From positions 13,789 to 77,788 of the forward strand of contig PWOI01000179.1 of the NCBI GenBank assembly GCA_003557485.1: a stretch of DNA of 64,000 nt, written 5' to 3'. Of the stretch, positions 6,905 through 24,603 are shown piece by piece; positions within the stretch are counted from its first letter, which is position 1; each line of letters opens with the position of its first letter. Below the pieces are notes generated by a model. That model was not told the DNA's origin. It searched no databases and was given only the letters and a program-made list of their open reading frames with translations. The DNA is from Elusimicrobiota bacterium. Its GTDB lineage: Bacteria; CG03; SLGR01; PWQF01. The position numbers and the translations under genes were made by a program.

Positions 6905-6944
6905 TTTAGTGGGAGAGAGAAGGCTCCCATATTAGGTGAAAATT

Positions 6945-7085: not shown

Positions 7086-7123
7086 CGGCCGGTTTGCCTT
7101 TATCAGGTAATCCGGCTGTTTTT
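7086..7123 (+). terminator. Intrinsic terminator-like hairpin plus U5 (riboswitch expression platform), ending 7 nt before the ATG at 7131
   Basis: CGGCCGG (7086-7092) pairs with CCGGCTG (7112-7118), including one G-U wobble. A 19-nt loop is followed by TTTTT (7119-7123). Confidence 0.4.
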
Positions 7124-7130
7124 ATTATAT

Positions 7131-8738: not shown

Positions 8739-10646
8739 ATGAATAAAATGATAAAAGTTCTGGTACTTCTTATGGCGCCCCTTTTTCTGGGCGCCTCTGA
8801 TTTTATGGACTATACAACTTTAATGAATCAGAAAATGGAAACCGAGAGGCGCCTTGAAGACCATCTGCAGGGAATTGTTTCCAGAATAGTCGGGGAAGGA
8901 CGTTCCACAGTTTTAGTCAGCGTAAATCTTTCCGACCTGAGCCGCAGCCGTGAAACTGTAGAAGAATGGCTTGAGCGGGGTGAGGATGCCGAAAGGCGGC
9001 TTCCGATGCGGGAAGAATACCTTCCCGGTATACCCCGCAGGGAAGATATGGCAGAAAGAGAAACGGAAGTCGCCGAGCGGGCCGGTGGAAAACGCCTCCA
9101 GGACGTAATAACTCTGCCTTCGGAATTTATAGAGAGTATGCGCATAAGCCTTATACTTGATTCCACTATATCCGAGACTGTAATCGCAACGGTGGAAAAC
9201 GTTATAACCGAGGTTATGGACCTGGATGCAGCCCGGGGCGATCGTTTAACTATACAGACAGTGGATTTTGCGGGTAGAACGGTAGATTTTATGGGTTTCC
9301 TATTTAATCCATATTTTTATGTTATATCCCTGGTACTTATAATTATAACCATACTCGCGCTTTTTCTTTTCGGGCCGCTGAAAAAATTTCTTTTCGCTAC
9401 TTTACAGACGATGAAAGACTTAAAAGGAATGAAGAGCGAAACCGAATACTCAGGAGGCGGGGGCGGGGGCGGGGGCGGATTTGGCATAACGCCGGACGGC
9501 GAAATTGAAATGGAAGAAGAGATAGAAGAAGATGAAGAATTGAAAGAGGGGGAAGAAGCAGATATAGAAGGCGAAGAAGAAGACGAGGAGTTTAAAAAGA
9601 TGACATATATACCGCTTAAGTTTCTGGAAAACAAGGATTTGAAGAAACTGGCTTACCTTTTAAGTTTTGAAAAACCGGAAGTAGGGGCTCTTCTTCTTAA
9701 ATATCTTTCGCCTCCGCGCGCTGCAAAAGTCCTCAGCTCAATTCCGGGAGAAGAAAGAACTATAGGAATAACAAGGGAGATTGTAAAATTTCAGAGAACT
9801 TCTAAGGAGGTCATGCAGAAAATAGATGAGTTTCTTAGCAGAAAAATAGATTACATTGCCGGCGGCGCCGAAAGTCTTGTGGAAATGATTGAAATGATGG
9901 ATGAAGAAAAAAGAGAGCAGCTCCTAAACCAGATTTCTTCTGAGGATCCTGAATTTGCCGAAAAAATTAAAAAGCGTATTTTCAGTTTTGAAAATATTGT
10001 AAATATGGATGACCCGTCCATACAGACACTAATACAGGAAATGGAGACTGCCGACCTTGGCGCAGCCCTTAAAAATGTATCTGAAGAAGTAAGAAACAAA
10101 TTTGTTTCCAATATGAGCGAAGGTGCGGCTGCTCTTTTAAAAGAGGAAATAGAATTTGGAAAGAAAATGACCGAGGAGCAGATAAAACAGAAACAAATGG
10201 AAGTTGTCGCAAAAATAAAAGATCTGGAGACGTCCGGCTCAATAGCACCCGTGACCGGCGCATCCAAAGAGGAATTATGGGTGGAAGAGCTGGGTGAGGG
10301 AGAAAAAGAAGGAGTTCTTGAGGAAATTATAAAGGCGGCCCAGGAAGCTTACGATAAGAAACAGGAACTTGAAGCTGCTGAGGCTGCCGGCCGTCAGGAT
10401 GATGAAGCTGCATTTGAAAGCTACCGTAAAGGTTTGGAACTCTATAAACACCAGGATTACGATAATGCAATAAAAGAGTTTAATAAATCCATTGCCTCCA
10501 ATCCATCCCTGTGGCAGAGCTATCAATATATAGGTTCCTGCTATCTTGCGCTCGATAATCAGGATGGAGCTAAAAAAGCCTACCGAAAAGCCCTTGAGCT
10601 TAATCCGTCAAACGAGCAGCTCAGGCAATGGTTGGAAAGTCATTGA
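8739..10646 (+). CDS. Membrane-anchored FliG-like protein (635 aa): signal/TM N-terminus, internal TM helix, poly-Gly and acidic linker, FliG middle/C-terminal-like domain, C-terminal TPR repeats
   Basis: Residues about 290-500 align with the FliG M/C pattern (KIKKRIFSFENIVNMDDPSIQTLIQEMETADLGAALKNVSEEVRNKFVSNMSEGAAALLKEEIEFGKKMTEEQIKQKQMEVVAKIKDLETSGSI versus FliG F-x-F-E-D-I...DDRAIQ...L-A-L-K-G-A-S-E-E...NMS-x-R-A-A-E-L-L-R-E-D...EEAQ-x-x-I...EEGEI). Hydrophobic segment FYVISLVLIIITILALFLFGPL. GGGGGGGGGFG and an E-rich run. TPRs at the end. Confidence 0.7.
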   Translation: MNKMIKVLVLLMAPLFLGASDFMDYTTLMNQKMETERRLEDHLQGIVSRIVGEGRSTVLVSVNLSDLSRSRETVEEWLERGEDAERRLPMREEYLPGIPRREDMAERETEVAERAGGKRLQDVITLPSEFIESMRISLILDSTISETVIATVENVITEVMDLDAARGDRLTIQTVDFAGRTVDFMGFLFNPYFYVISLVLIIITILALFLFGPLKKFLFATLQTMKDLKGMKSETEYSGGGGGGGGGFGITPDGEIEMEEEIEEDEELKEGEEADIEGEEEDEEFKKMTYIPLKFLENKDLKKLAYLLSFEKPEVGALLLKYLSPPRAAKVLSSIPGEERTIGITREIVKFQRTSKEVMQKIDEFLSRKIDYIAGGAESLVEMIEMMDEEKREQLLNQISSEDPEFAEKIKKRIFSFENIVNMDDPSIQTLIQEMETADLGAALKNVSEEVRNKFVSNMSEGAAALLKEEIEFGKKMTEEQIKQKQMEVVAKIKDLETSGSIAPVTGASKEELWVEELGEGEKEGVLEEIIKAAQEAYDKKQELEAAEAAGRQDDEAAFESYRKGLELYKHQDYDNAIKEFNKSIASNPSLWQSYQYIGSCYLALDNQDGAKKAYRKALELNPSNEQLRQWLESH

Positions 10647-10709
10647 AAGCGAAAATAGAATGCAGAACTTGAAAAAAAATAAATACTGTATTAGTACTTT
10701 ACAATTCTT

Positions 10710-13700
10710 ATGAATCCTGAAAACAACCAAAATCATAATAAAGGGCAGGGACTTCCCGGACCGCCTCCGCCTCCCTTTTCGGGAGATGCCGGGAAGAATC
10801 CTTCGCCCGGAATACCGGATATGCCGCCAATTCCCGGCTCTGCGCCACCCCCTCAGTCTATTGATGATGTTTTTACTCCTCAGGACCCCGGCATGGCAAA
10901 AGAAAAAAAACGTCCTTCTGAGAGAGAGAAACAGATTGAAGAAGAAATTTCCAGGCTGGACAGCCGTATGGAAAAAGAACGGCTTCAGCTGATGGAAAGG
11001 CTTAAGGAAAAAGAAAACGAAAACCTACGCCTGCAGGAACAGTTTCTTGAAAAAGAAAAAGAGGATGCCCGCCGTAAAAAGGAAGAGTTTGATAGATTGA
11101 AAGAAAAGCTTCATGAACAGTTTGTCGAAAAGGAAAATAAACTTAAAGAGGAAAGAGAACAGTGGCGCAGAGAGCTTGACGAAATAAGAAAAGAAAACAG
11201 AAGCAGACTTGCCCTTGAGCAGACGCAGAACCAGATCCGCATAGAGGCCCAGCAGCAGGCTCGCGAAGAATTTCAGCAACAGATGAAAGAAATGAAAAAG
11301 GAGCTTGAAAATGCCCGCCGCCGCGCTTACGAAGAGGCAATTAAACACAAGGAAGAAGAGAAAAATTCCATTAAGGTAGAGCAGGCCCTTAAAGAGGTCC
11401 TCCAATCAACTTCAATGAGCCAGAAAGCCGAGCAGGTTGAAAAGGAAAAAGAAAAACTCCGCGAAGAACTTTATCATCTTGAAAAAGAACTGGCATCCCA
11501 GAAAATTAATATGACTCGCAAGCTGCAGGAGAGCGAGAATTTAAGAGACAATATCAGGCTTGACTATCATAATAGGATCCGTGAAAGCCGGAGTCAGTAT
11601 GAAAGTAAAATTGCAGAGTTGAGAGAGACTGCTTCCGAGCTTGGCAATAAACTCTGGCAGGCCCGGAACAGCTATGAGAACAAAAAGGAGCTGTGGGAAG
11701 AAAGGGTCCGGGAAAATATTCAGGAAAAGGAAAATCTTACACTGCAGTACCAGAAACAGATAAGCGAACTCAGACTTGAATATGAACAGAAAATTACCGA
11801 TGCGTTAAGCGCAAAAGAATCTGCAGAAAACAGGTATTGGGGAATTAAGGAAAAATTTGATGAGCAAACGGTTGAGCTTAATTCGCGTATTAAAGAACTT
11901 GAAAAAGAGAAAGACCTTATAGAAAAAGAATACGGAATGAAAGTCGCCTCTCTTGAAAGCGCCCTTAATGAAGAGAAAGCCGAACTTGCTGCCCAGAAAA
12001 AGATAAGCGAGGAAAGACTTAACCGAATTAACGATGAACTTCACGCAAAGGAGAACAGGTATAAGGAAAAAATAAGCGATATAGAAATAAATTATTCCGA
12101 AAAAATCCAGAATATAAAAGAAAAATATAAATCCGGCCTTTCTGAAAATGAAAGAGAAATAGAAAAGCTTAAGGCGCTTCTGAAGGAAAGCCGTGAGAAA
12201 TTATCACAGAATTCCGGAGGATCTCACCGGGATTTTGAAAACAGCAAAAAAGAGGTAGAAGAAGCCCGCCGTCTAATGGAGAAGGAAAAGAACAGGTTCA
12301 ATTTCCGGCTCAGAGAAATAGAGAATGATTATGAAAAGCGTCTCTCTGAACTTAAAGTTAAAAACAGCCGTCTTGAATCAAGGATATCAGCCCTTGAAGA
12401 AAAAAGAGAGACCTCTATAGATAAATATAACGACAAGATAGAAGAACTCAACGGAAAAATAAATGAACTTAAAATTGAAAACGCAGCTTTACAGGGAGAT
12501 TTACTGAAAACCGAGAGGCAGATTGAGAGTTCCGACAGAGCTTTAGAGGATATGGCCCGCAAAAATGCCGAAATTCACCACCGCCTTGTCAGCAGCCGAA
12601 AAGAAAATGATGAGGACATTTACCGGTTGAGAGAAGAAATAAATTCTCTGCGCAGGGAAAAAACCGAAGCTCTTCTAAGGATTGAGAACGAGCATTCCAG
12701 GGAATCGGAACTCTATGAGAACCAGCTTCTTCAGGCGCGCAGGGCAACAGAGGATCTCAGGCGCGAAAAAGACCGGCAGATAGATTCAATTAAACAGCAG
12801 TTTGATAATTACAGAAAGAACTTTCAGTGGCTTAAACAGGAGTGGCAGCAGCAAAAAGAAGAACTCCGGGAAAATTTCAGCGTGAAGGAAAAGGGATATG
12901 AAAATGAGATAAAACAGCTTGAATCGGCTCTGAGCGAAGTGCAGAAACTGAAAACACATTCTGAAAGTGAACTTAACGCTGAAATTGAAGCTGTCAGGAA
13001 GGAAAAACAATCCCTGCAGGAAAAATTTGAATCAAAAATTCAGCAGATGAGGGATGAATTTGCAGCTAAAAAGACGGATCTTTATGAAAAACTGAATGAA
13101 AAACAAAGGAATATAAGCGAATTGGAAGCCCGTCTGGATACAGAAAGAGTTGACTATACAGCCCGGATCCAGCAAGCGGAAAAAGAGAAAACTGCTGTTT
13201 TGCGGGAAAAAGAGATCCTTGATGTAGAAACTGAAAAACTGAAAAAAGAGACTCATAGCCTCCAGCTCAGGTACGAAAGAGAAGCAGAAGAAAACCGTAA
13301 ACTGAGAGAGGCTCTTCATCATGGTGAAAAGAAGTACAGAAACGAAATAGGAAAGCTTAAGGAATACTACGAGAAAAACCTTGAATCCCTTCGCAGAAGG
13401 CAGGATGGTATTGCAAATGTAGAGTATGACAGCCTTGATACTGAGAATAGAGAATTGAAGCATCAGCTTAAGTCTGCTGAATCTGAGATAAGCCGGCTTA
13501 AGTCACAGCTTGTAGAAAAAGAAGAGGCTCAGGAAAAAATACAGGCTGAAATAGATAAATATACAGCAGAAATTGATGACCTTACACAGGAATTGAAGCA
13601 AAGACAGTCTGTTATTGAACAACTTGAACGGAAAGTTTCTGATATTGATGATTCGCAGGCTGTGCAGGAGGATATAAGCCAGCTTAAAAAAGAAAACAGC

Positions 13701-14618
13701 GAATTAACCGGACATTTGGAAGAATCATTGCGGGAAAGGGATATTCTTAAAGAGAAAAATGCCAGCCTTTTGTCGGAAAATGAAGCTAAAAAGCAGCAAA
13801 TAGAACAGCTTTCCCTTAAACTTGAGGAAAAAGAAAGCCAAATAGGCCAGCTTCAAGGTAAAATTCCCGGAGAAGATATTATATCCGGTAAGAATGAGGA
13901 AATAGCAGAACTTGAAGATGAAATTAAAGAGCTAAGGTCCGCCCTTTCGGATTCTGAATCTAAAATAAAGCAGCTTTCAGAGGCTGCATCCCGTGCGGAT
14001 TCTCTTATGGACAGCAAAAAAGAGATAGAAGAACTTTCCGCTTCACTTGCGGAAAAACATTTGAAAGAAATTGAAGAGAAAGAAAGAATTATAGAAGAAT
14101 TAAGAAAAGAACTTGAGGAGTCCCTTGAAGAACTTGAAGAGAGGGAGCAGCAGCCTGTGACCGATGGGCTTAAATCTGAAAGGCTGCAGGTTCTTGCCGG
14201 GGAGAATGCTGAACTCAAGGAAAAAATAAGAGAATTGGAGTCTCAGCTTGAGATAGGAATGGAGCAGCTTCGCAGTGAGAAGATGGTTCCGGAATATGAT
14301 ACAGAAAAAACAGACGAAAAAATAAAGCAAATCAATGAAAAATGGAGGAAAAAATGGGCCGGCCGCGAACAGAAAGTAAAAGATTTCATATCACAGGCAA
14401 AAGCCAGGCACAGCCAGCTTAAAGACAAGCTTCAGGTTGCTCTTGAAGACCAGAAAATTCTTTCACAGCTTGCAGAAAAGGAAAAACAACAGAAACAGAA
14501 GCTTGCTTCAGAGCAGGCCGAACTTATAAAAGAGCTTCAGGAAAGCAACAGGTCTTTTGTCAGTAAAATACTTGCCAAACTGAAAAAAGGCGGGCCTAAA
14601 GGCGTACTCATCCTTTAA
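10710..14618 (+). CDS. Giant coiled-coil protein (1302 aa): Pro-rich N-terminus followed by about 1200 aa of E/K/R/Q-rich heptad-like sequence
   Basis: Continuous ORF with a strong purine-rich coding strand. N-terminal PGPPPPPFSGD...PPIPGSAPPP. The remainder is low-complexity, charged and predicted alpha-helical. No enzymatic motif recognised. Confidence 0.7.
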   Translation: MNPENNQNHNKGQGLPGPPPPPFSGDAGKNPSPGIPDMPPIPGSAPPPQSIDDVFTPQDPGMAKEKKRPSEREKQIEEEISRLDSRMEKERLQLMERLKEKENENLRLQEQFLEKEKEDARRKKEEFDRLKEKLHEQFVEKENKLKEEREQWRRELDEIRKENRSRLALEQTQNQIRIEAQQQAREEFQQQMKEMKKELENARRRAYEEAIKHKEEEKNSIKVEQALKEVLQSTSMSQKAEQVEKEKEKLREELYHLEKELASQKINMTRKLQESENLRDNIRLDYHNRIRESRSQYESKIAELRETASELGNKLWQARNSYENKKELWEERVRENIQEKENLTLQYQKQISELRLEYEQKITDALSAKESAENRYWGIKEKFDEQTVELNSRIKELEKEKDLIEKEYGMKVASLESALNEEKAELAAQKKISEERLNRINDELHAKENRYKEKISDIEINYSEKIQNIKEKYKSGLSENEREIEKLKALLKESREKLSQNSGGSHRDFENSKKEVEEARRLMEKEKNRFNFRLREIENDYEKRLSELKVKNSRLESRISALEEKRETSIDKYNDKIEELNGKINELKIENAALQGDLLKTERQIESSDRALEDMARKNAEIHHRLVSSRKENDEDIYRLREEINSLRREKTEALLRIENEHSRESELYENQLLQARRATEDLRREKDRQIDSIKQQFDNYRKNFQWLKQEWQQQKEELRENFSVKEKGYENEIKQLESALSEVQKLKTHSESELNAEIEAVRKEKQSLQEKFESKIQQMRDEFAAKKTDLYEKLNEKQRNISELEARLDTERVDYTARIQQAEKEKTAVLREKEILDVETEKLKKETHSLQLRYEREAEENRKLREALHHGEKKYRNEIGKLKEYYEKNLESLRRRQDGIANVEYDSLDTENRELKHQLKSAESEISRLKSQLVEKEEAQEKIQAEIDKYTAEIDDLTQELKQRQSVIEQLERKVSDIDDSQAVQEDISQLKKENSELTGHLEESLRERDILKEKNASLLSENEAKKQQIEQLSLKLEEKESQIGQLQGKIPGEDIISGKNEEIAELEDEIKELRSALSDSESKIKQLSEAASRADSLMDSKKEIEELSASLAEKHLKEIEEKERIIEELRKELEESLEELEEREQQPVTDGLKSERLQVLAGENAELKEKIRELESQLEIGMEQLRSEKMVPEYDTEKTDEKIKQINEKWRKKWAGREQKVKDFISQAKARHSQLKDKLQVALEDQKILSQLAEKEKQQKQKLASEQAELIKELQESNRSFVSKILAKLKKGGPKGVLIL

Positions 14619-14853: not shown

Positions 14854-15711
14854 ATGGACCTGACGACAGTAATAGGGCTTTCCGGAGGCATTATAATAGT
14901 TTTTACAGCGGTTGCTCTCCGTGGTGGTATGGCAGGCCTGCAGGGGTTTCTGGATATGCCTTCCGCTATGATTACTTACGGGGGAACCTTTGCCGCTCTT
15001 ATGGTGAACTATCCGATAGATAAAGTTGTAAAAGCCTTTAAAGTCGTCAAAAAAGTATTTACCGAACAGCAGGACGACCCTAACGATTATATTGAAAAAT
15101 TCCGCCAGCTGATTATCAAAGCCTCAAAACAGGGAGTTCTTTCCCTTGAGGAAGATATAAAAAAAATGGACAACGAATTTTTAAGAAATGGAGTTAAAAT
15201 GGTCATGGACGGCCAGAGCCAGGAGCATATAGAAGAAGAAATGGAGACTGAACTGGCATTTACCAGGGAAAGGCATAAAATAGGCCAGGAAATTTTTGTG
15301 ACACTTGGCACTTACTCCCCTGCGTTCGGTATGATAGGGACTATTATGGGTCTTATCCTGATGCTAGCCGACCTTCAGGATACTGCCCAGATAGCTGCCG
15401 GTATGGCGGTAGCTCTATTGACAACCTTTTACGGCGCCCTTGGCGCTTATCTTATTTTTCTTCCCATCGCCGGCAAGCTGAAAAGGCGTTCGGAAGAGGA
15501 GCTTTTTCTTAAAAGTGTCATAACCAGAGGCGTCATGTCCCTTCATGCGGGAGAGGTTCCTTCAATAGCGGTAGCTAAACTGCGCGCGTATATACCGAGA
15601 TCCTCTTTTATGGAGCCTTCCGGCACAAAAAAAGGGAAGGCTGACGAAAAAGAAGAAGGAAACAAGAAGAAAAAAACAAAGGTAAAATACCGTAAAAAGA
15701 AGAAGAAATGA
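14854..15711 (+). CDS. motA: MotA/TolQ/ExbB-family proton-channel stator subunit (MotA-like, 285 aa) with Lys-rich C-terminal tail
   Basis: MDLTTVIGLSGGIIIVFTAVAL...ITYGGTFAALMV N-terminal TM pair. C-terminal TM pair with the LGTYSPAFGMIGTIMGLI...LLTTFYGALGAYLIFLPIAGKL signature. Tail KKGKADEKEEGNKKKKTKVKYRKKKKK. Confidence 0.85.
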   Translation: MDLTTVIGLSGGIIIVFTAVALRGGMAGLQGFLDMPSAMITYGGTFAALMVNYPIDKVVKAFKVVKKVFTEQQDDPNDYIEKFRQLIIKASKQGVLSLEEDIKKMDNEFLRNGVKMVMDGQSQEHIEEEMETELAFTRERHKIGQEIFVTLGTYSPAFGMIGTIMGLILMLADLQDTAQIAAGMAVALLTTFYGALGAYLIFLPIAGKLKRRSEEELFLKSVITRGVMSLHAGEVPSIAVAKLRAYIPRSSFMEPSGTKKGKADEKEEGNKKKKTKVKYRKKKKK

Positions 15712-16562
15712 GCAAAATTGCCGCATTTAAGAGGAGTCTTCCTAAAGACGAGGGGGATATTGAGGTCGGTAAAGGCTCCCCCCCGTGGATGACTACTTAT
15801 GGAGACCTTGTTACCCAGCTCCTGATTTTTTTTGTTATGATGTTTGCGCTTGCCGCCACGCTCAATGAGCTGCAGTTGATAAGCATAAAACGCAGAATTG
15901 AGAACTACGCATACCAGAACCAGCTTGGCCATCTTATAATGCTCGATATTAACCCCAAAGGATTGGTAATAACCCTTAGCGAAAAAATGATGTTTGATTC
16001 CGGCCAGGCCGAGATATATGAGGATGCAAAAGCCATTCTCTCCGCAATAGCAGGTGAAATAATAGATGTACCCAATCCTGTCAGAATTGAAGGTCATACG
16101 GATAGCGTACCCATCAGTACAGATAGGTTTCCTTCCAACTGGGAACTGTCAACAGCCCGGGCGACAAATGTAGCAAGATATCTTGTAGAGAACCTGGAAT
16201 TTCCGCCTGACCGGATAGCTGCCGGGGGGTACAGTAAATACCATCCTGCGGTAGGAACGGAAATTGAAGATGAAATATTCAACTACAAGTTAAAAGTAAG
16301 AGAGGTTCCACAGCATTATTCCCTTGAGCTCAGGCGCGCATCCACTCCGGAGGAGGAAGACCTGGTTATGTTGAGAATAAGAGAAGAACAGCTTGAGATA
16401 CAACGGGAAATGCAGGGAATAATTATGGAGCATATACGTATTGCAAACCTTGATGCGGACAGAAGAGCCCGGAACAGGAGGGTTGACATAATAGTGGAGA
16501 GGATAGGCACTACTGTTGAAAGAAGAACGGATATCGCGGCGCCTGTTGCCGTTTCTCATTAG
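15708..16562 (+). CDS. motB: MotB-like stator subunit with OmpA-type peptidoglycan-binding domain (284 aa)
   Basis: PPWMTTYGDLVTQLLIFFVMMFALAA plug/TM motif. IEGHTDSVPI...FPSNWELSTARATNVARYLV...NRRVDIIV OmpA-like domain. Start overlaps the motA stop (ATGA). Confidence 0.85.
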   Translation: MSKIAAFKRSLPKDEGDIEVGKGSPPWMTTYGDLVTQLLIFFVMMFALAATLNELQLISIKRRIENYAYQNQLGHLIMLDINPKGLVITLSEKMMFDSGQAEIYEDAKAILSAIAGEIIDVPNPVRIEGHTDSVPISTDRFPSNWELSTARATNVARYLVENLEFPPDRIAAGGYSKYHPAVGTEIEDEIFNYKLKVREVPQHYSLELRRASTPEEEDLVMLRIREEQLEIQREMQGIIMEHIRIANLDADRRARNRRVDIIVERIGTTVERRTDIAAPVAVSH

Positions 16563-16606
16563 AATTGTGATTTGCAAAAGTTGGAAAATTTTATTATAAG
16601 TGCTAT

Positions 16607-16660
16607 ATGACGGTTAGATATATAAGTATTACAGAAATGAACTGGTGGTGGCCCATGTAG
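16607..16660 (+). CDS. Candidate trp-operon leader peptide MTVRYISITEMNWWWPM (17 aa) with three consecutive Trp codons. An internal ATG at 16637 would give MNWWWPM.
   Basis: In-frame ATG...TGG TGG TGG CCC ATG TAG, located 95 nt upstream of trpE and directly followed by alternative hairpins and two terminators. Confidence 0.5.
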   Translation: MTVRYISITEMNWWWPM

Positions 16661-16692
16661 GGAGCGCTGCCGTGTCTTTATTTTTTAATCAG

Positions 16693-16720
16693 CGGCGCGC
16701 CCTCTGGCGGCCGTTTTTTT
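16693..16720 (+). terminator. Attenuator terminator 1: GC-rich 8-bp stem (one bulge), CTCT loop, U7
   Basis: cggc(g)cgcc-ctct-ggcggccg followed by ttttttt (16714-16720). Confidence 0.5.
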
Positions 16721-16726
16721 ATTTAG

Positions 16727-16754
16727 GGCCGCCTTTAAGGCGGCTCTTTTTTTT
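16727..16754 (+). terminator. Attenuator terminator 2: GGCCGCC-tttaa-GGCGGCT stem-loop plus U8, ending at the trpE ATG. The right arm contains the trpE SD-like AAGG.
   Basis: ggccgcc tttaa ggcggct followed by c tttttttt (16747-16754). ATG at 16755. Confidence 0.55.
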
Positions 16755-18209
16755 ATGCAAACAAAAATTATACCAGTAAGAGAAAAAATTGTAGCGGATT
16801 TTATAACCCCGGTTTCCGGGTATATAAGAATGGGAAGCGGAGATTATTCGTTTCTGCTGGAGTCTGCTGAAAAAGGAAAGGCCGGCAGGTTTTCTTTCGT
16901 AGGGTTCTGCCCCCGGCGGGTTTATGAACTCTACACTGACCGGGTAGATATTATGGAGAGGGCACAGGAGAATCCGAATGTTCTGACGCCTAAAAAGACC
17001 GTAAGAAGCAGTGACCCTCTCGCAGTAATTCAGGAAGTTCAGGACAGGTTTAAAGTTGAGGATAACGGCAGCCTTCCTCCTTTCTGCGGCGGGCTTGTGG
17101 GATACTCTTCATATGAGATGATTGAAACTTTTGAAAACCTTTGCCTTGAAAACCGGCCGGCTGCCGGGGAACCGCTCGGTGTTTTCATCTTTAGTGATGA
17201 AATAATCGCATTTGACCACCTTCACAATACCGCTGAGATAATAAAACTCGTAAGTGAAGAGGAGGGGGAGGATAAGGCCCGCCTACGCATACTGCAGATT
17301 AAGAACAGATTATTGAATACTCAGGTCCAAATAAAACCGATGGCGATGGCGGGCGAGGGCCGCCCTGAATATAAATCAAATTTTACAGAGAGTGAGTTTA
17401 AAAAGGGTGTTAACAAAATAAAAGAAGAAATTATGTCCGGGGAAATAATACAGGGGGTTTTCTCCCAGAGGCTCACAGCCGACGCGCCGGATGACGTTTT
17501 TGACTGCTACAGGGCTTTAAGGGTAGTAAACCCCTCTCCTTATATGTTTTACCTTAAACTTAAGGATACTGTCCTGTGCGGCTCTTCACCTGAAGTTATG
17601 GTAAAGTCTTCCGGCGGAAAAGCATGCCTGAAGCCGATAGCCGGCACGCGTAAAAGGAGCCTTTGCAGCAACGAGGAAAAAGAACTCAAGGAGGATCTAA
17701 AAAAAGACCCTAAAGAAATAGCGGAGCATATAATGCTGGTTGACCTTGGAAGAAATGATCTCGGGAAAGTCTGCAGTCCGGGCAGCGTTAAGGTTAAAAA
17801 TCTTATGGCGGTGGAAAAGTATTCGCACGTAATGCATATGGTAACAGAGATAGAGGGAAACCTGGCTGAAGGGATAGGGAATACGGATGTTTTTAAAGCA
17901 TGTTTTCCCGCCGGCACGGTGAGCGGCGCGCCCAAACTCAGGGCAATGCAGATAATAGACAGTCTGGAAAAAACACCGCGCGGGCCTTATGCGGGCGCAG
18001 TAGGTTATTTTTCTTTTACAGGTGATATGGATACCTGCATTGCAATAAGGACTATGGTGGTAAAGGGAAAGAAAGTTTTTATACAGGCCGGAGCGGGGAT
18101 TGTTGCGGATTCGGTCCCGGAGAAAGAATATATCGAAACTATGAATAAAGCCGGCGCTCTGCTACAGGCCCTTTATATGGCCGGCAGCGGGAAGGAAGAG
18201 AATTTATGA
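16755..18209 (+). CDS. trpE: Anthranilate synthase component I
   Basis: 484 aa. Chorismate-binding family motifs (FLLES...GRFSF, GTRKR, LVDLGRNDLGKV, GAVGYF). Confidence 0.9.
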   Translation: MQTKIIPVREKIVADFITPVSGYIRMGSGDYSFLLESAEKGKAGRFSFVGFCPRRVYELYTDRVDIMERAQENPNVLTPKKTVRSSDPLAVIQEVQDRFKVEDNGSLPPFCGGLVGYSSYEMIETFENLCLENRPAAGEPLGVFIFSDEIIAFDHLHNTAEIIKLVSEEEGEDKARLRILQIKNRLLNTQVQIKPMAMAGEGRPEYKSNFTESEFKKGVNKIKEEIMSGEIIQGVFSQRLTADAPDDVFDCYRALRVVNPSPYMFYLKLKDTVLCGSSPEVMVKSSGGKACLKPIAGTRKRSLCSNEEKELKEDLKKDPKEIAEHIMLVDLGRNDLGKVCSPGSVKVKNLMAVEKYSHVMHMVTEIEGNLAEGIGNTDVFKACFPAGTVSGAPKLRAMQIIDSLEKTPRGPYAGAVGYFSFTGDMDTCIAIRTMVVKGKKVFIQAGAGIVADSVPEKEYIETMNKAGALLQALYMAGSGKEENL

Positions 18210-18233
18210 TTCACTGCCGGCAAAGGAGTTGAA

Positions 18234-19244
18234 ATGATAGTTAAAAAGTGCATAGAAATCCTGATAGAGAAGAAAGACCTATCAGCAGAACAGATGAGAA
18301 AAGCTATGGAGGAGATAATGGACGGTAATGCCGATTCCGCCGTAATAGGGGCTTTTCTTTCCCTGTTAAGATGCAAAGGCGAGACAGTTGAAGAAATAAC
18401 CGCGGCCGCATCCGTTATGAGAGATAAGTCCGAAAAAATCAGTATAGAGGGAGACCTTCTGGATACCTGTTCAACCGGGGGGACAGGAATAAATCATTTT
18501 AATATATCTACGGCAGCTTCTTTTGTGGCTGCCGGGTGCGGCCTAAAGGTGGCAAAACACGGGAACCGGGCTGTTTCGGGCCGGTGCGGCAGCGCGGATG
18601 TACTTGAAAAACTGGGTGTCTGTATCCAGCTGCCTCCGCATCAGGTAAAAAAATGCATTGAAAAAGCCGGAATAGGTTTTCTTTTTGCTCCAATTTTTCA
18701 CCGGGCAATGAAAAATGTTGCGGTACCCCGCAGGGAACTCGGAATACGGACGGTTTTTAATATACTAGGCCCCCTGACCAACCCGGCAGGGGCCTCTTTT
18801 CAGCTTCTCGGAGTATTTGATGCGGAGTTAGCCGAACCGCTTGCGCGTGTGCTGGGTAATCTGGGCGTAAAAAAAGCTATGGTTGTTCACGGCGCCGGCG
18901 GAATGGATGAAGTATCTCTTGCCGGTCCGAGTTTAGTCTGCGAGCTTAAAGAAGGCGATGTCCGCCGGTATGAAATCGGTCCGGATGATTTCGGACTTAA
19001 AAGAAGCGGCATAGATGAAATTGCCGGCGGCAACGCCGAAATTAATGCATTAGCAATTAAAAAAATTCTCAAGGGAGAGAAGGGGGCCTTCCGGGATATA
19101 GTCCTTGCTAACACTTCCGCTGCTCTTGTGACCGCAGGGCGAGCGGAAAACTTTAAGGATGGAGTAGAAATTGCACGCTGCTCTCTTGATTCCGGTAGCG
19201 CACTGAAAAAACTTAAAGAACTTATATCAATTTCAGGAGAATAA
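18234..19244 (+). CDS. trpD: Anthranilate phosphoribosyltransferase
   Basis: 336 aa. CSTGGTG, KHGNRAVSG, GPLTNP motifs. Confidence 0.9.
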   Translation: MIVKKCIEILIEKKDLSAEQMRKAMEEIMDGNADSAVIGAFLSLLRCKGETVEEITAAASVMRDKSEKISIEGDLLDTCSTGGTGINHFNISTAASFVAAGCGLKVAKHGNRAVSGRCGSADVLEKLGVCIQLPPHQVKKCIEKAGIGFLFAPIFHRAMKNVAVPRRELGIRTVFNILGPLTNPAGASFQLLGVFDAELAEPLARVLGNLGVKKAMVVHGAGGMDEVSLAGPSLVCELKEGDVRRYEIGPDDFGLKRSGIDEIAGGNAEINALAIKKILKGEKGAFRDIVLANTSAALVTAGRAENFKDGVEIARCSLDSGSALKKLKELISISGE

Positions 19245-19825
19245 TGAATATTACAGTAATAGATAATTATGATTCGTTTGTTTACAACCTGGTTGATTAT
19301 ATGGGCAGGAGCCGCGGAGTGAAGGTAAGGATTTACAGGAACGACAGCGTATCTGCCACAGCTGTTATTGAGGAAAAACCTGATGCCGTGGTAATATCAC
19401 CCGGGCCCGGACGCCCGGAAAATGCGGGTATATGTATCGAGCTTATCAGGAAAATGCCGGACGGAATACCTTTACTGGGAGTCTGCCTGGGCCATCAGGC
19501 CATCGGAGCTGCTTTAGGAGCGGAGATAATAAGGGCGGCAAATATTTTTCACGGAAAGACTTCATCTGTCAGCCACAACGGCAAAGGGCTCTTCAATTCT
19601 ATAGAAAATCCGATGACGGCTACACGCTATCATTCACTTGTAATAGACAGAAAGACCCTCCCCGGCGAGCTTGAAGTTACCGCTGTTTCCGAAGACGGCG
19701 AAATTATGGGAGTAAAACACAAAACACGTAAAATATACGGCGTTCAGTTTCATCCGGAATCCATTCTTACGGAAGACGGACTAAAGTTAATGCGGAATTT
19801 TATGGATATAGCCCGGGAAAAATGA
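19244..19825 (+). CDS. trpG: Anthranilate synthase component II (glutamine amidotransferase)
   Basis: 193 aa. IDNYDSFVYNL, GVCLGHQAIG catalytic Cys, HPES. Confidence 0.9.
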   Translation: MNITVIDNYDSFVYNLVDYMGRSRGVKVRIYRNDSVSATAVIEEKPDAVVISPGPGRPENAGICIELIRKMPDGIPLLGVCLGHQAIGAALGAEIIRAANIFHGKTSSVSHNGKGLFNSIENPMTATRYHSLVIDRKTLPGELEVTAVSEDGEIMGVKHKTRKIYGVQFHPESILTEDGLKLMRNFMDIAREK

Positions 19826-20583
19826 CAGTTTTAGATAAGATAATTAAAAGAAAGAAAGAAATGCTTGCCGGGGGCAGGTTTCCTGGGGCGCCGCCCGCGA
19901 CTTGCGCAGAATATGAGAATTCCTTTAAAAAAAGGCTTACCGGAAAAGGCCTTTCAGTAATAGCTGAAATAAAAAGATGCTCTCCTTCTGCCGGGGAGAT
20001 TACAGAAAAAAGCGTTGAAGAACTCGCCGAAATTTACGCAGACAGTACCGCAGCCTGCATATCCGTTCTGACAGAAGATCTATATTTCGGAGGAAGCCCT
20101 GAAGATATTACAAAAGTTAAAAAAATAACCTCAAAGCCGGTTCTTATGAAGGATTTCATAATTTTTAAAGAACAGATCTACCTTGCCCGCCTGTGCGGTG
20201 CAGACGCAGTTCTTCTGATATCTTCCATATTAAGTGAAGAAGAGATAAAAATATTAAACGAGACAGCTAAGCAGTGCGGCTTGTCGGTATTGAATGAAGT
20301 ACATAGTCTGTCTGACATCAAAAAGCTGCAGGGTAACAAAAAGATTGAAATAACAGGTGTAAACAGCAGAGATCTTGTAAGCCTTAAGGTTGATGAATCT
20401 GTTCACGAAAAACTTATTCCCTTTCTTGACAGAAGAACGTTGAAAATTGCCGAGAGCGGAGTAAGCCGGCCCGACCGCGCGCGGCAGCTTGAGAATATGG
20501 GATATGATGCAGTTCTGGCAGGAGAGTCCGTTATAGTTTCTTCTGATCCGGCCGGAAAAATAAAGGAGCTTGGAGGAAAGTGA
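19822..20583 (+). CDS. trpC: Indole-3-glycerol-phosphate synthase
   Basis: 253 aa. IAEIKRCSPS...KDFII...NSRDL pattern. Overlapping start and stop with neighbours. Confidence 0.85.
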   Translation: MTVLDKIIKRKKEMLAGGRFPGAPPATCAEYENSFKKRLTGKGLSVIAEIKRCSPSAGEITEKSVEELAEIYADSTAACISVLTEDLYFGGSPEDITKVKKITSKPVLMKDFIIFKEQIYLARLCGADAVLLISSILSEEEIKILNETAKQCGLSVLNEVHSLSDIKKLQGNKKIEITGVNSRDLVSLKVDESVHEKLIPFLDRRTLKIAESGVSRPDRARQLENMGYDAVLAGESVIVSSDPAGKIKELGGK

Positions 20584-21203
20584 CTCTTCTTAAAATATGC
20601 GGAATAACAAGCTTCGAGGACCTGAAAATGTGCTTTGAAGAAGGTGCGGATATCGCCGGCTTCAACCTGTATCCCGGGTCGGTGAGATATATTTCGGAGA
20701 ATATGCTCAGGGATCTTGTGGCGGCCGCTACAGGTAAATCAGCTGTTGTGACAGTTGATATGGAACCGGAAAAACTGATAAATACAGTTAAAGACTGCAG
20801 ACCGGAATATATACAGCTCCACGGATCCGAAGATTACGGCTACTGCATGAAGATTAAGGACAGGTTCCCGGATATTAAATTAATCAGGAAAGTTACAATT
20901 GATATGAAAAATCAATTTGACGAAGTCCTTAAATCGGCGGATTTTATTCTATGTGACGTTAAAACATTTCTGCACGGTGGCACAGGGCTGAAGTTTGACT
21001 GGAAAATACTGCGCCAAGTTCCGGATGGGATAAAAAAGAAAATGTTTATTGCAGGGGGAGTTACACCGGAAAACGTATCGCAGCTTGCCGGGTTAGGACT
21101 GGCCGGTATAGATGTCGCTTCCGGCAGTGAAGTGTCAGCCGGTATAAAAGACCGCATAAAAATAAGAAAACTGACAGGAATAATAAAAAAGAGAGAAATA
21201 TAA
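20580..21203 (+). CDS. trpF: Phosphoribosylanthranilate isomerase
   Basis: 207 aa. KICGITS...QLHG...GGTGLKFDW...AGG. Confidence 0.85.
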   Translation: MTLLKICGITSFEDLKMCFEEGADIAGFNLYPGSVRYISENMLRDLVAAATGKSAVVTVDMEPEKLINTVKDCRPEYIQLHGSEDYGYCMKIKDRFPDIKLIRKVTIDMKNQFDEVLKSADFILCDVKTFLHGGTGLKFDWKILRQVPDGIKKKMFIAGGVTPENVSQLAGLGLAGIDVASGSEVSAGIKDRIKIRKLTGIIKKREI

Positions 21204-22321
21204 TGAAAAACGGATATTACGGAAATTACGGCGGGAGTTTTGTTCCGGAAACTCTTATAGAGCCTCTCAATGAGCTTATTGCAAATTACAAAAACCTTAA
21301 AAAATCACCACGGTTCAAAGCAGAACTGAAAAAGCTGCTTACAGATTTTGCGGGAAGGCCTACTCCGCTTTTTAAATCAGAAAAACTGTCCGCGCGCGCC
21401 GGCTGCGAAGTTTACCTTAAAAGGGAAGACCTTGCCCATACAGGATCCCATAAAATAAATAATGCTGTCGGGCAGGCCCTGGTAGCCAGGTTTTCCGGAA
21501 AGAAGAAAATAATAGCAGAAACAGGGGCAGGCCAGCACGGGGTTGCCGCCGCCTCCGCCGCAGTTGTAACCGGCCTTAAATGCAGGGTTTTTATGGGGGA
21601 AGTCGATATATCCCGGCAGCAGGAAAACGTAAGAAGAATGAAACTTTTAGGGGCCGAAGTAGTTCCTGTAAAAGAAGGAACCCGCACTCTCCGGGAAGCG
21701 GTAAGCGCAGCTATACGGAGCTGGGTTTCGGATCCCCGTGATTCTTATTATCTTCTGGGTTCCTGCGTAGGCCCGCATCCCTATCCAATGATGGTGCGGG
21801 ATTTTCAGTCTGTAATAGGAAAGGAAGTTAAAAAACAGCTCTCATACCCGCCGACACACTTGGTGGCCTGTGTGGGTGGAGGGTCCAATTCAATAGGGCT
21901 TTTTCATCCTTTTTTCGAAGATAGGAATGTGAAACTTATAGGAGTGGAAGCCGGCGGGGCAGCATCTATTAATAACGGCAGGATAGGGGTTCTTCACGGG
22001 ACCCGTAGCTACCTTCTTTACGGACGCAGCGGCCAGATAAAAGATACGCATTCCGTGGCTCCCGGACTTGATTATTGTGGAGTAGGGCCTGAACATTCCT
22101 ATTATAACGATATCCGCCGGGCTGATTATTTTACTGTAAGCGATGGCGGAGCGCTTAAAGCCTTCAGGTGGCTTTCGAAAAATGAGGGGGTAATACCTGC
22201 GCTGGAATCTTCCCATGCGATATGGTGGATGATGAATAATAAATTCAGCAAGGGTGACCGGGTTGTGGTTTGTCTTTCGGGAAGAGGAGATAAGGATCTG
22301 TCAGCCGCCGGTCAGGGTTAA
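21203..22321 (+). CDS. trpB: Tryptophan synthase beta chain
   Basis: 372 aa. PLP-enzyme motifs (HTGSHKINN, GAGQHGVA, GGGSNSIG). Confidence 0.9.
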   Translation: MKNGYYGNYGGSFVPETLIEPLNELIANYKNLKKSPRFKAELKKLLTDFAGRPTPLFKSEKLSARAGCEVYLKREDLAHTGSHKINNAVGQALVARFSGKKKIIAETGAGQHGVAAASAAVVTGLKCRVFMGEVDISRQQENVRRMKLLGAEVVPVKEGTRTLREAVSAAIRSWVSDPRDSYYLLGSCVGPHPYPMMVRDFQSVIGKEVKKQLSYPPTHLVACVGGGSNSIGLFHPFFEDRNVKLIGVEAGGAASINNGRIGVLHGTRSYLLYGRSGQIKDTHSVAPGLDYCGVGPEHSYYNDIRRADYFTVSDGGALKAFRWLSKNEGVIPALESSHAIWWMMNNKFSKGDRVVVCLSGRGDKDLSAAGQG

Positions 22322-22339
22322 AGAAAGTTGTGACATGAA

Positions 22340-23131
22340 ATGAATGAACTTGAAAGAAAAATTAACTGGTTGAAAGAGGAAAAACTGACAGGCATAAGTT
22401 TTTTTATGACTGCCGGGTATCCGGATATGAAAACCTTCAGTGATACAGTCAGGGAACTTGACCGCCGCAGCCTTGCAGATTTTATTGAGGTAGGCGTGCC
22501 ATTTTCGGATCCCCTTGCGGACGGCCCGGTTATTCAGAATTCTTCCAGGGAGGCAATAAAGCAGGGGGCAAGCCTTGGTAATATTTTTGAAGCAGTCAGG
22601 AAGATTAAAAAGGATACGGCTCTGCCCATGGTGATGATGAGTTATCTTAACCCTCTTACTTCCGGGGCCGGACTGGAAAAAAATCTTAAATGCGCCGCTG
22701 ATTCGGGATTTTCAGCAGTAATAATACCGGATCTCCCGGCCGGTGAATCTGCGGAAATTGAAAAAACAGTAAAAAAGCCGGGTCTTGGACACGTATTTCT
22801 TGCTGCTCCTTCAACCCCGGATGAAAGGATAAGAGAAATATCCCTAAAGAGCTCACCTTTTCTTTATTATGTAAGTTCATACGGCGTAACAGGGGCGCGC
22901 CGCAGCCTGGACAGTAAGCTTGCCTCCAGACTTGAAAGAGTAAGAAAATTGTCCCGTGTTCCTGTTTACTGCGGTTTTGGTATCTCAACCCCCGCGCAGG
23001 CCGCTTTATTGAAAAAAAGTCTTGACGGTATTATTATAGGTTCGGCGTTCATTGATAAATTAAAAACAAGACACTTTAAAGCCCCGTTAAAATTTGCTAT
23101 AAGTATAAATAAATCTCTGGGAAGGATGTAG
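22340..23131 (+). CDS. trpA: Tryptophan synthase alpha chain
   Basis: 263 aa. GVPFSDPLADGP, YVSSYGVTG, CGFGIS. Confidence 0.85.
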   Translation: MNELERKINWLKEEKLTGISFFMTAGYPDMKTFSDTVRELDRRSLADFIEVGVPFSDPLADGPVIQNSSREAIKQGASLGNIFEAVRKIKKDTALPMVMMSYLNPLTSGAGLEKNLKCAADSGFSAVIIPDLPAGESAEIEKTVKKPGLGHVFLAAPSTPDERIREISLKSSPFLYYVSSYGVTGARRSLDSKLASRLERVRKLSRVPVYCGFGISTPAQAALLKKSLDGIIIGSAFIDKLKTRHFKAPLKFAISINKSLGRM

Positions 23132-23176
23132 GTGCGCTGCCCGGGCGGCGGAAGGAAAACAGGGTAAAAGTATCAA

Positions 23177-23779
23177 ATGCCTGCTGTAGATATATGCGGA
23201 ATAACTAGTACAGAAGATGCCAAATGGGCCGCTATTCACGGAGTAGAGTATGTTACGGTTTACAGGGATCCTGAATCGGCTAGAACCATTTCTGTTTCCC
23301 GTGCGGAAGAAATAAGGCATCTCCTGCCGGATTACAGCGAGGTATCTCTTGACTTCGGGTCTGCTGAAAATATAAATTTAAAAGAACTGGATAAGATTGC
23401 GCCATCAATAGTTAAGTTTTATATGCCGGAAGATCATTCTGAATTTGAAAATATTAAAGAACTGCTGGAGGGAAAAAATTACAAGCTGGTTATTAAAATT
23501 CGTCCCGGAAGCATTTCTTCATATATGGAAGGGTTCAGCGGAATGATTCAGCTCGAATTGGATGAAAATGTGCAGGATGAGGAAATAAGCGTGCCGGAAT
23601 ACATAAACAATGAAAAATTTATGATTCTGGGTGATTTGCCGCTTGAGAGAATTAAAAAACTCTGCGGGATTACACAACCCCATGCATGGTGCCTGGAAAA
23701 TATTATTTCCAGCGCGTCCTCAAGAAGGATAGATTACAGTAAAATGAAAAAATTTATCAGGGAGATAACTCTTTTATAG
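23177..23779 (+). CDS. Divergent PRAI (TrpF)-like paralog, 200 aa
   Basis: N-terminal MPAVDICGITSTEDAKWAAIHGVEY parallels the TrpF KICGITSFEDLKMCFEEGADI. C-terminal ...SSASSRRIDYSKMKKFIREI parallels the TrpF GIDVASGSE...KIRKL. Otherwise highly diverged. Confidence 0.5.
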   Translation: MPAVDICGITSTEDAKWAAIHGVEYVTVYRDPESARTISVSRAEEIRHLLPDYSEVSLDFGSAENINLKELDKIAPSIVKFYMPEDHSEFENIKELLEGKNYKLVIKIRPGSISSYMEGFSGMIQLELDENVQDEEISVPEYINNEKFMILGDLPLERIKKLCGITQPHAWCLENIISSASSRRIDYSKMKKFIREITLL

Positions 23780-23781
23780 CA

Positions 23782-24603
23782 ATGAATTCCAAAAAAAATA
23801 ATGTTCCGCACGGACTCTTTAAAAGGTGCCCTAAATGCGATTACTCTATTTACAGCAAAGAACTTCAGCTGTCGCTGTGGGTCTGCCCTAAATGCGATTA
23901 TCACTTCCGGCTACCGGCGCGGCGCCGCATAAAAATGCTTATAGATGAAGGGACTTTCAAGGAGTACGATTCTGATATATCAACTTCGGATCCGTTAGGT
24001 TTCAAAGATATAAAAACGTATCCGGAAAAAGTTTCCGAATATGTAAAAAAATCAGGATTAAACGAAGCAGCAGTTTCCGGAACGGCAAAAATCGGGGGAT
24101 ATGATGTATCCCTCTGCGTTCTTGATTTTTATTTTATGGGCGGCAGTATGGGCTCGGCTGTCGGAGAAAAGGTTTGCCGCGCCGGTGAACGCGCTCTGCG
24201 TAAAAAAATACCTTTCATTGCAGTATCTGCTTCCGGGGGAGCCAGGATGCAGGAGGGAATTCTATCTCTTATGCAGATGGCAAAAACTTCAGCGGTTATA
24301 GCCAAGCTGGATAAGGAAAAGATACCTTATTTCTCGGTTATGTGCGATCCGACAACCGGAGGAGTCTCCGCATCTTTCGCCATGCTTGGTGATGTTAATA
24401 TAGCCGAATCGAGAGCTTTAATAGCTTTCGCCGGACCGAGAGTTATAAAACAGACTATTAAACAGGATCTTCCGCCTGATTTCCAGAGCGCAGAATTTGT
24501 CCGGGACCACGGTATGATAGATATAGTCGTTGACAGGGAAGACCTGCGCGGTGAACTCATAAGACTACTCAGGCTTTTCTCGGGAAAGCCAGCCAATAAA
24601 TAA
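23782..24603 (+). CDS. accD: Acetyl-CoA carboxylase carboxyltransferase beta subunit
   Basis: C4 zinc ribbon (CPKCDYSIY...CPKCDYHFRL) followed by the carboxyltransferase domain (GGSMGSAVGEK, GGARMQEG). Confidence 0.9.
   Translation: MNSKKNNVPHGLFKRCPKCDYSIYSKELQLSLWVCPKCDYHFRLPARRRIKMLIDEGTFKEYDSDISTSDPLGFKDIKTYPEKVSEYVKKSGLNEAAVSGTAKIGGYDVSLCVLDFYFMGGSMGSAVGEKVCRAGERALRKKIPFIAVSASGGARMQEGILSLMQMAKTSAVIAKLDKEKIPYFSVMCDPTTGGVSASFAMLGDVNIAESRALIAFAGPRVIKQTIKQDLPPDFQSAEFVRDHGMIDIVVDREDLRGELIRLLRLFSGKPANK

Follow-up and report, generated by a model that had tools for sequence, protein, structure and literature searches.

What decides whether RNA polymerase enters the trpEDGCFBA operon of this Elusimicrobiota bacterium? 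In the window, i.e., the whole stretch of 64,000 nucleotides (nt) of contig PWOI01000179.1 that was analysed, a short open reading frame (ORF) with three consecutive Trp codons lies 95 nt 5' of trpE, and two hairpins with U-runs stand in between. The question is thus how one sensor could govern two terminators. Our answer is that the region is probably a ribosome-mediated leader-peptide attenuator, in which a single stalling event governs two tandem intrinsic terminators through a relay of six RNA segments. There is good support for ribosomal control of terminator 1. For terminator 2, relief is plausible: pairing energies, comparison with shuffles, the barriers to refolding and the same design in an unrelated lineage speak for it, and column-wise covariation does not.

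The pairings are numbered 1:2, 2:3, 3:4, 4:5, and 5:6, with 3:4 being terminator 1 and 5:6 terminator 2 (Table 1). The leader ORF with its three TGG codons, segment A, the U7 and U8 runs, and the trpE ATG at 16755 all lie where the original prediction had placed them, as does hairpin 1; hairpin 2 extends beyond the 16727–16745 assigned to it. Hairpin 1 contains eight G-C pairs with G16697 bulged and a CUCU loop (−12.9 kcal/mol), and hairpin 2 has ten pairs and a UUA loop (−17.2 kcal/mol); both correspond to the usual description of an intrinsic terminator, that is, a G+C-rich hairpin followed by a U-run. Two alternative pairings had been proposed, in which the 5' arm of terminator 1 is bound by segment A and its 3' arm by the 5' arm of terminator 2, and both are present. 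The former, 2:3, joins 16660–16673 to 16692–16703 at −19.3 kcal/mol, compared with −12.9 kcal/mol for terminator 1, and the latter, 4:5, consists of seven G-C pairs at −16.1 kcal/mol. Both alternatives match the terminators in stability and outdo their shuffled controls. One pairing, 1:2, was absent from the prediction: it joins 16644–16650 to 16665–16671 and 16652–54 to 16660–62 (−14.3 kcal/mol). It is present in the minimum free energy (MFE) fold of the 161-nt region, which comprises three hairpins, namely 1:2, terminator 1, and terminator 2; this region is more stably folded than its shuffles (z = −2.4).

Table 1. Features of the trpE leader region and of the operon that follows it, in window positions.
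Feature	Position	Strand	Details
Promoter-like element	16572–16600	+	−35 TTGCAA 16572–16577; 17-nt spacer; −10 TATAAG 16595–16600
Leader ORF	16607–16660	+	ATG 16607, TAG 16658–16660; 17 codons; product, as read from the sequence, MTVRYISITEMNWWWPM
Leader Trp codons	16643–16651		TGG TGG TGG
Region 1	16644–16654	+	Trp codons and CCC; partner region 2 in the 1:2 hairpin; loop AUGUA
Region 2	16660–16673	+	Holds segment A, GGAGCGCTGCCG, 16661–16672; partner region 1 or region 3
Region 3	16692–16703	+	5' arm of terminator 1 and part of its loop
Terminator 1 (3:4)	16693–16720	+	Hairpin 16693–16713, then U7 16714–16720
4:5 alternative hairpin	16706–16733	+	16706–16712 (3' arm of terminator 1) with 16727–16733 (5' arm of terminator 2)
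Terminator 2 (5:6)	16725–16754	+	Hairpin 16725–16747, then U8 16747–16754
Shine–Dalgarno (SD)-like sequence UAAGGCGG	16736–16743		Within the loop/3' arm of hairpin 2; 10–11 nt from the trpE AUG; −7.6 kcal/mol
trp operon	16755–23131	+	trpE-trpD-trpG-trpC-trpF-trpB-trpA (Pfam)

The region upstream of trpE was recovered for 15–16 members of the clade to which the TrpE of the window is closest, labelled Elusimicrobiota and having TrpE 52–65% identical; four loci came from a search of genome contigs at TrpE ≥52%, and the remainder from a protein search with contig look-ups. A search of metagenome contigs with TrpE yielded none closer than 47% identity. The same layout was observed in 12 of the 15–16 loci (the window, L001, L161, L003, L004, L164–L169, and L171), and a short A+T-rich spacer alone precedes trpE in L002/L163, L162, and L170. 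Conservation in relatives had been named beforehand as the test that could refute the proposal, and the ORF with WW(W) as well as both hairpins are indeed kept. The 12 leaders, each ending at its stop codon, are MTVRYISITEMNWWWPM, MEKMKDIISISWWWPV, MKTKEQVISINWWWSV, MSNIKITKINIGWWRIM, MNFIKYLQFKNCWWRPV, MKIMDNISFQVWWRCM, MHNIHNMLKMVWCWRM, MNIKKKNYSINWWWPM, MVINSIINFWWRRM, MNNRVEKENNVIWWWHM, MMVIVNSEEYSTDRVTGWWWPM, and MKIKKNNLISWWWRM. They are 14–22 amino acids (aa) long, retain WW, WWW, or WCW in all cases, and share the C-terminal end WW(W/R)x(M/V)-UAG; their N-terminal parts vary, and the first Trp codon invariably stands five codons before the stop. The motif TGGTGGTGG alone is unremarkable, with one match in the 64-kb window and at least one in 19 of 100 shuffles; among 171 fetched loci, the pattern TGGTGG-N6-RTGTAG is confined to these leaders.

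Region 2 begins 0–4 nt past the leader stop in 12/12 loci, and all five pairings are predicted in each of them with comparable energies, ranging from −6.6 to −16.9 kcal/mol for 4:5 and from −7.7 to −17.2 kcal/mol for 5:6. Everywhere, 2:3 excludes terminator 1 and uses the segment adjoining the leader stop, as expected of an antiterminator. In L001 and L165, it is the alternative set of pairings that the MFE structure shows. A uniform terminator rule identifies hairpin 2 with a run of U6–U9 at all 12 loci, and hairpin 1 at seven with a full run and at two more (L003, L004) with an interrupted one.

Several details of the leader end were seen in passing. UGUAG is the invariant 3' end of all 12 leader ORFs (16654–16660 in the window) and makes up the loop of hairpin 1:2. 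The codon before the stop is AUG in nine loci and GUG in three, both of which are start codons, and the stop itself is UAG in all 12, with UAA and UGA found in none. A constraint on the loop, a tuned time of RF1-dependent ribosome release, or a start-stop element are possible reasons for this invariance.

The leader appears to be read from its very 5' end. Only 6 nt separate the end of the −10 hexamer TATAAG from the leader ATG, with no SD sequence in between, and an explicit scan found the same geometry in all 12 leaders, with a TTGACA-like/16–18 nt/TAnnnT-like pair ending 5–9 nt 5' of an ATG that lacks an SD. A generic promoter scan had given no result in the window because it demanded T at the final −10 position, where TATAAG has G. 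Judging from the promoter geometry, transcription would start at the leader AUG or within about 3 nt of it, and the leader would be translated as a leaderless mRNA. A transcription start downstream of 16660 had been foreseen as an objection; the promoter-like element was found 5' of 16607, and not 3' of 16660.

In order to model the ribosome, nucleotides were blocked up to 13 nt beyond the A-site codon, the footprint size being taken from general knowledge. With UAG in the A site, the ribosome would cover the transcript to approximately 16670–16674, and when stalled at W13/W14 it would leave 16664–16673 free. Under these masks, the probability P of terminator 1 in the window is 0.01 with the ribosome stalled at W13/W14 and 0.97 with it at UAG (+13 nt mask). 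The proposed ribosome switch therefore stands for terminator 1; for terminator 2 of the window, relief is not obtained at equilibrium, as described below. Direct results are the elements themselves, how they are conserved, the pairing energies, and, from modelling, how terminator 1 depends on where the ribosome stands.

From these we infer termination at each hairpin, a kinetic 4:5 trap, and a response to Trp, which would combine as follows. With enough charged tRNA-Trp, the ribosome would proceed to UAG and mask region 2, and 3:4 would fold as terminator 1; a polymerase escaping it would meet 5:6, that is, terminator 2, and the leak fractions would multiply. In an untranslated leader, region 1 with its Trp codons would sequester region 2, and the outcome would be the same as in the Trp-replete state. 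Under scarcity of charged tRNA-Trp, the ribosome would stall on W13–W15, masking region 1 and leaving region 2 free; 2:3 would form once region 3 emerges, and terminator 1 would be blocked. Region 4, now without a partner, would trap region 5 before region 6 is synthesised, hence terminator 2 would be blocked kinetically and the polymerase would enter trpE. Terminator 2 could also serve as a later, second checkpoint: should the ribosome resume translation and 3:4 form anew before the polymerase has reached 16747–16754, region 5 would be freed and terminator 2 would fire.

In E. coli, the trp 1:2 hairpin acts as a pause hairpin. A U-rich stretch in the window, UUUAUUUUUU (16677–16686), begins 6 nt past the 1:2 hairpin and may be, by analogy, a pause signal synchronising polymerase and ribosome. 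In L164 (~863–900), U6 directly adjoins the 3' side of the 1:2 hairpin, which for that reason resembles a third terminator or a pause site.

A different role for hairpin 2 is suggested by the start of trpE. The 3' arm of terminator 2, which lies 7 nt from the trpE AUG, would hide the SD-like UAAGGCGG; terminator 2 would act additionally or mainly on translation, with the choice between 4:5 and 5:6 also setting that of trpE, which is compatible with attenuation at two terminators. The position of the AUG right at the U-run of terminator 2 is in line with this, as is the energy of −7.6 kcal/mol with which UAAGGCGG binds the canonical anti-SD, 10–11 nt from the AUG; concerted transcriptional and translational attenuation by terminators that sequester the ribosome-binding site has been proposed in general (PMC2965389). 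On the other hand, the match is found in the window alone among the 12 loci. The only other locus with ATG adjoining the U-run, L001, has the same layout and no SD-like counterpart (−3.1 kcal/mol). In the other ten, trpE starts 20–110 nt past hairpin 2, in some cases with an SD of its own (GAGGAGG, AAGGAGG) and in some with none. In addition, the spacing in the window is beyond the optimum, and many first genes in the window have no SD. For these reasons, an SD within terminator 2 was rejected as a conserved feature, and the translational second stage of the original prediction, in which this site becomes exposed, is not supported. We regard a translational role as unlikely but still deserving consideration; an effect of UAAGGCGG on translation in this one genome, outside the conserved device, is possible.

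Apart from this, the layout of the start itself deserves a note. Both in the window (16747–16757) and in L001 (2993–3003), the trpE ATG follows U8 directly, without a spacer or a canonical SD, and in the closest relative, L161, a 90-nt spacer with AAAGGA precedes trpE. The N-terminus of TrpE aligns with that of relatives having a normal SD. A U-rich standby site for trpE initiation is one possibility.

Returning to the relay proper, in which one stalled ribosome relieves both terminators, the pairings were compared with controls in several ways. In an alignment-free covariation test, each 5' partner was joined to its own or to another species' 3' partner; cognate pairs exceeded non-cognate ones with p = 0.02 for 2:3, 9e-6 for 3:4, 0.005 for 4:5, and 0.007 for 5:6. 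When the 3' partner was shuffled 200 times per locus, the real pairing in the window was equalled in 13/200 cases for 1:2, 3/200 for 2:3, and 0/200 for 4:5. For 2:3, no more than 12/200 shuffles did so in 11/12 loci, and for 4:5 no more than 3/200 in the window, L001, L161, L167, L169, and L171.

For column-wise covariation, leader alignments made with MAFFT (A1, A2) were dropped, as the hairpins were misaligned in them, and a covariance-model alignment was used instead. The model (R1), which had the window as its only sequence, found all 12 leaders at E ≤ 0.07, and the usable alignment contains 10 sequences. For the terminated fold, pairing holds in 90% of cells, and at 16 pairs both partners have changed, which is matched by 0/500 shuffles (slid controls, 41–64%), with the reservation that the test leans in favour of this fold because the alignment was fitted to it. 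Compensatory changes are seen in both terminator stems (helices 3–4 for terminator 1 and helix 5 for terminator 2). The 1:2 helix has 89.7% of cells paired across the 10 sequences, and only its region 2 strand varies. Column by column, the suggested covariation check came out positively for the stems of the terminated fold and not for the alternative pairings. The model had not been fitted to 2:3 and 4:5; together, these have 72.5% of their cells paired, as compared with 69.2% in shuffles (27/500) and 32–58% in slid controls. Strict covariation leaves 2:3 and 4:5 unconfirmed.

Since terminator 2 of the window still folds at equilibrium with a stalled ribosome, its relief can be kinetic only. 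The barrier for refolding from 4:5 to 5:6 is 9–17 kcal/mol in 11/12 loci and 9.1 kcal/mol in the window (direct path, findpath), and that from 2:3 to 3:4 is 10–16 kcal/mol, with ~13 kcal/mol in the window. Crude as these figures are, they suggest times of seconds or longer, slower than transcription of the U-run.

A number of results weigh against the relay. At equilibrium, P of terminator 2 in the window is 0.8–0.95 with the ribosome stalled, 0.96 with it at UAG, and 0.96 in the untranslated leader. The equilibrium outcomes over the 12 loci are mixed: in L001 the respective values are 0.01, 0.58, and 0.87, which speaks for relief of terminator 2 there, and L161, L167, and L168 change little with ribosome position. 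The estimate for the kinetic trap is crude, with a barrier of ~9 kcal/mol from findpath and a prefactor that was assumed. Pairing 1:2 is just marginally above its controls (p = 0.09 in the cognate test), and 4:5 does not exceed its 200 shuffles in L164, L165, and L004. Some 4:5 complementarity comes free because both hairpins have a core of the GGGC/GCCC type. Finally, column-wise covariation of 2:3 and 4:5 in the register of the window is not significant, its score being reached in 74/500 shuffles, and 4:5 alone is merely 60% paired in the 10-sequence alignment; a shift in the register of the alternative helices from species to species probably accounts for this and limits the test.

Three of these results, namely the high P of terminator 2 (0.8–0.95) in every ribosome scenario in the window, the 60% column-wise conservation of 4:5 without significant covariation, and its failure to exceed shuffles in three loci, favour an alternative in which the ribosome controls terminator 1 alone. 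The second terminator would then be unregulated and partly efficient, lowering expression always, and 4:5 would be a by-product of two similar G+C-rich hairpins. We hold this improbable for several reasons. Firstly, if a terminator of −17 kcal/mol with U8 acted constitutively right before trpE, most of the induced transcripts would be lost. Secondly, hairpin 2 is the better conserved of the two (12/12, U6–U9). In L164, L165, and L167, hairpin 1 has no U-run, and hairpin 2 would therefore be the sole terminator there; hence, the signal of the ribosome could reach it only via region 4, that is, by 4:5. Thirdly, the six loci with 4:5 equalled by at most 3/200 shuffles include L171, whose stems differ in sequence, and in L001 the energy of 4:5 (−16.9 kcal/mol) far exceeds that of 5:6 (−10.2 kcal/mol).

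Fourthly, the design is repeated independently in L152/L153 (~1160–1400), an unrelated metagenomic trpE locus with TrpE 41% identical and a different sequence throughout. It has a near-leaderless WW leader, MKKETGSGKRCNFWWDSL, with a UAG stop, and its promoter and ATG are 9 nt apart. Pairing 2:3 has −21.3 kcal/mol, terminator 1 −16.2 kcal/mol with U6, 4:5 −15.8 kcal/mol, and terminator 2 −15.7 kcal/mol with U6; the 4:5 pairing, of GGUCACGG with CCGUGACG, joins the two tandem terminators.

Whether hairpin 1 terminates at all is the point of another alternative, a chain of the his-leader type with termination at hairpin 2 only. Hairpin 1 would then be mainly a protector stem, like his C:D, keeping region 4 from region 5, and the U7 of the window would be incidental. 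The U-run after hairpin 1 is interrupted in L003 and L004 and absent from L164, L165, and L167, i.e., it is imperfect in 5/12 loci; hairpin 1 of the window is bulged, has only −12.9 kcal/mol, and was missed by a generic terminator scan; and the six-segment logic matches that of the Salmonella his leader (PMC4046918). Against this, a full run of U6–U9 directly follows hairpin 1 in 7/12 loci, the window (U7) and six relatives, which is the standard signature of an intrinsic terminator, and L152/L153 carry U6 behind both hairpins. Moreover, WW/WWW leaders of other phyla, listed below, have one terminator of −17 to −24 kcal/mol, whereas those of the Elusimicrobiota type have two of −8 to −17 kcal/mol, and this replacement of one strong terminator by two weaker ones suggests that both contribute. 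Termination at hairpin 2 alone is thus quite improbable as a general description.

The notion that there is no attenuator, the hairpins being terminators of an upstream motAB operon and the WWW ORF a product of chance, fits the unremarkable frequency of TGGTGGTGG in 64 kb and the position of the hairpins ~130–190 nt 3' of motB, but it is effectively refuted by the comparative data, since the WW(W) codons, the spacing from W to the stop, and UAG are kept in 12/12 loci, the leader and hairpins stay with trpE behind unrelated upstream genes, the promoter-like element lies 5' of the leader ORF, and the 0 nt between hairpin 2 and the ATG leave no space for a trpE promoter. The genes 5' of the element indeed differ among relatives (motB, a Wzy_C/TPR protein, a response regulator, a divergent gene) and trpE remains, hence the element belongs to the trp operon and not to motAB.

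In the window, trpE, from its ATG at 16755, encodes an anthranilate synthase component I of 484 aa, and flbD, motA, and motB are found upstream, motB ending at 16562. Downstream, trpA is followed by a 200-aa ORF without a Pfam match, accD, whose carboxyl transferase carries a zinc ribbon, and a Mur ligase gene resembling folC (22340–25848). A trpFBA-accD-folC linkage is reported for Sinorhizobium (PMC6614838), which the trpBA-accD-folC order of the window resembles.

Further upstream, a cyclic di-GMP (c-di-GMP)-I riboswitch (RF01051, 43.8 bits) was found at 6955–7034. It is preceded by TTGACA-17 nt-TATTAA (6877–6905), and a hairpin with U5 (~7086–7124) is directly followed by an ATG without an SD at 7131; this locus shares with trpE the layout in which the U-run of a terminator adjoins the start codon. 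The genes past the riboswitch encode a TPR/UPF0164 protein, a FliG-TPR fusion (8739–10646), a 1302-aa product, and FlbD, MotA, and MotB, which points to control of a motility-like cluster by c-di-GMP. The 1302-aa ORF (10710–14618), flanked by the FliG-TPR gene and flbD, is without a confident Pfam domain (a weak match to DUF1664 only), and a strong A-over-T skew of 0.33–0.35 extends across it in 10001–14618.

As for known RNA families, the Rfam model Trp_leader (RF00513) gave no match at E ≤ 10 in 15500–18000, nor at its gathering score over the whole window, and there was no match to T-box or any other cis-regulatory Rfam family in 15500–18000. The sole leader family listed is Phe_leader, with 18 bits as compared with a gathering score of 55, and the other weak matches are to generic small RNAs consisting of two hairpins and a U-run (e.g., ncS54 and suhB, 28–29 bits, below gathering). 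Features of T-box or TRAP regulation, the latter with an array of (G/U)AG repeats, were not found, the interval between leader and trpE being filled by the two hairpins.

ORFs of 30–40 aa with WW or WWW before trpE were found in L006, L007, L016, L039, L040, L049, L057, L065, L072, L084, and L154, labelled Deltaproteobacteria, Zixibacteria, Ignavibacteriaceae, and Bacteroidota; several of them share a YWWWYY core. Because such leaders occur under these other phylum labels, Trp leader-peptide attenuation appears to be widespread outside Proteobacteria and Actinobacteria.

The element extends Trp attenuation to uncultured and little-studied Elusimicrobiota-like metagenome-assembled genomes, and annotation would miss it, as the family lies outside the current Rfam models. 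It offers a compact natural case of one sensor acting on two serial terminators via a pairing relay. Such a relay should multiply repression without loss of induction, which bears on synthetic attenuators and on the evolution of dynamic range. The conserved adjacency of promoter and AUG would add a case of regulatory leaderless translation outside Actinobacteria and Deinococcus. Tentatively, we suggest that this may be a distinct class of attenuators, with a leaderless sensor ORF, a relay from 2:3 to 4:5, and two modest sequential terminators replacing one strong, the second being a delayed checkpoint; it would have arisen at least twice, in the Elusimicrobiota clade and in L152/L153.

The nearest reference is the trpL leader of E. 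coli and other enterobacteria, with which the element shares a short ORF with tandem Trp codons, the overlapping pairings 1:2, 2:3, and 3:4, and an intrinsic terminator before trpE. The E. coli trpL peptide ends in WWRTS, its first Trp codon standing five codons before the stop, as in the window. In contrast to the four segments and one terminator of E. coli, there are six segments and two tandem terminators here; the leader ORF has no SD and its AUG adjoins the promoter; the lineage is Elusimicrobiota-like and not Proteobacteria; and homology in sequence or structure is absent, as reflected by the lack of an RF00513 match. The trp attenuator mechanism has been summarised in PMC4007540.

Leaderless leader peptides have precedents. 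In Deinococcus deserti (including trpEGD) and Corynebacterium, leader ORFs without an SD begin at the transcription start or within 1 nt of it, as mapped by differential RNA sequencing (PMC4007540, PMC5784534), and a preprint (bioRxiv 10.1101/834739) describes Cys-responsive attenuators with leaderless upstream ORFs in mycobacteria. The Deinococcus and Corynebacterium leaders belong to other phyla and no tandem terminators are described for them; in the present case, the start is deduced from promoter geometry. Two serial terminators in one 5' leader are known from the rimP-leader of some Gammaproteobacteria (PMC2965389), but that element is not leader-peptide based, precedes another gene, and has no 4:5 relay described. 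In the open-access literature, we found no case of two linked terminators in an attenuator of the leader-peptide type, and no report on trp regulation in Elusimicrobia.

The closest analogue in architecture is the his leader of Salmonella and E. coli, where six segments form either A:B/C:D/E:F or B:C/D:E, and a stalled ribosome flips the chain and controls the distal terminator via an intermediate hairpin (PMC4046918). Likewise, the window and its relatives have five overlapping pairings, with alternate sets for the terminating and read-through states. The his leader differs in sensing His and in having E:F as its only terminator; here the sensor is for Trp, the middle hairpin also has a U-run in 7/12 loci, and the last hairpin is the sole terminator in L164, L165, and L167 alone. 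Of the 'classical trp attenuator' of the original prediction, the leader-peptide type thus stands and the word 'classical' does not, given the lack of an Rfam Trp_leader match, the apparently leaderless ORF, and a six-segment chain closer to the his leader than to E. coli trpL. The mechanism is a known one; what is new is the lineage and the uncommon architecture of two linked terminators.

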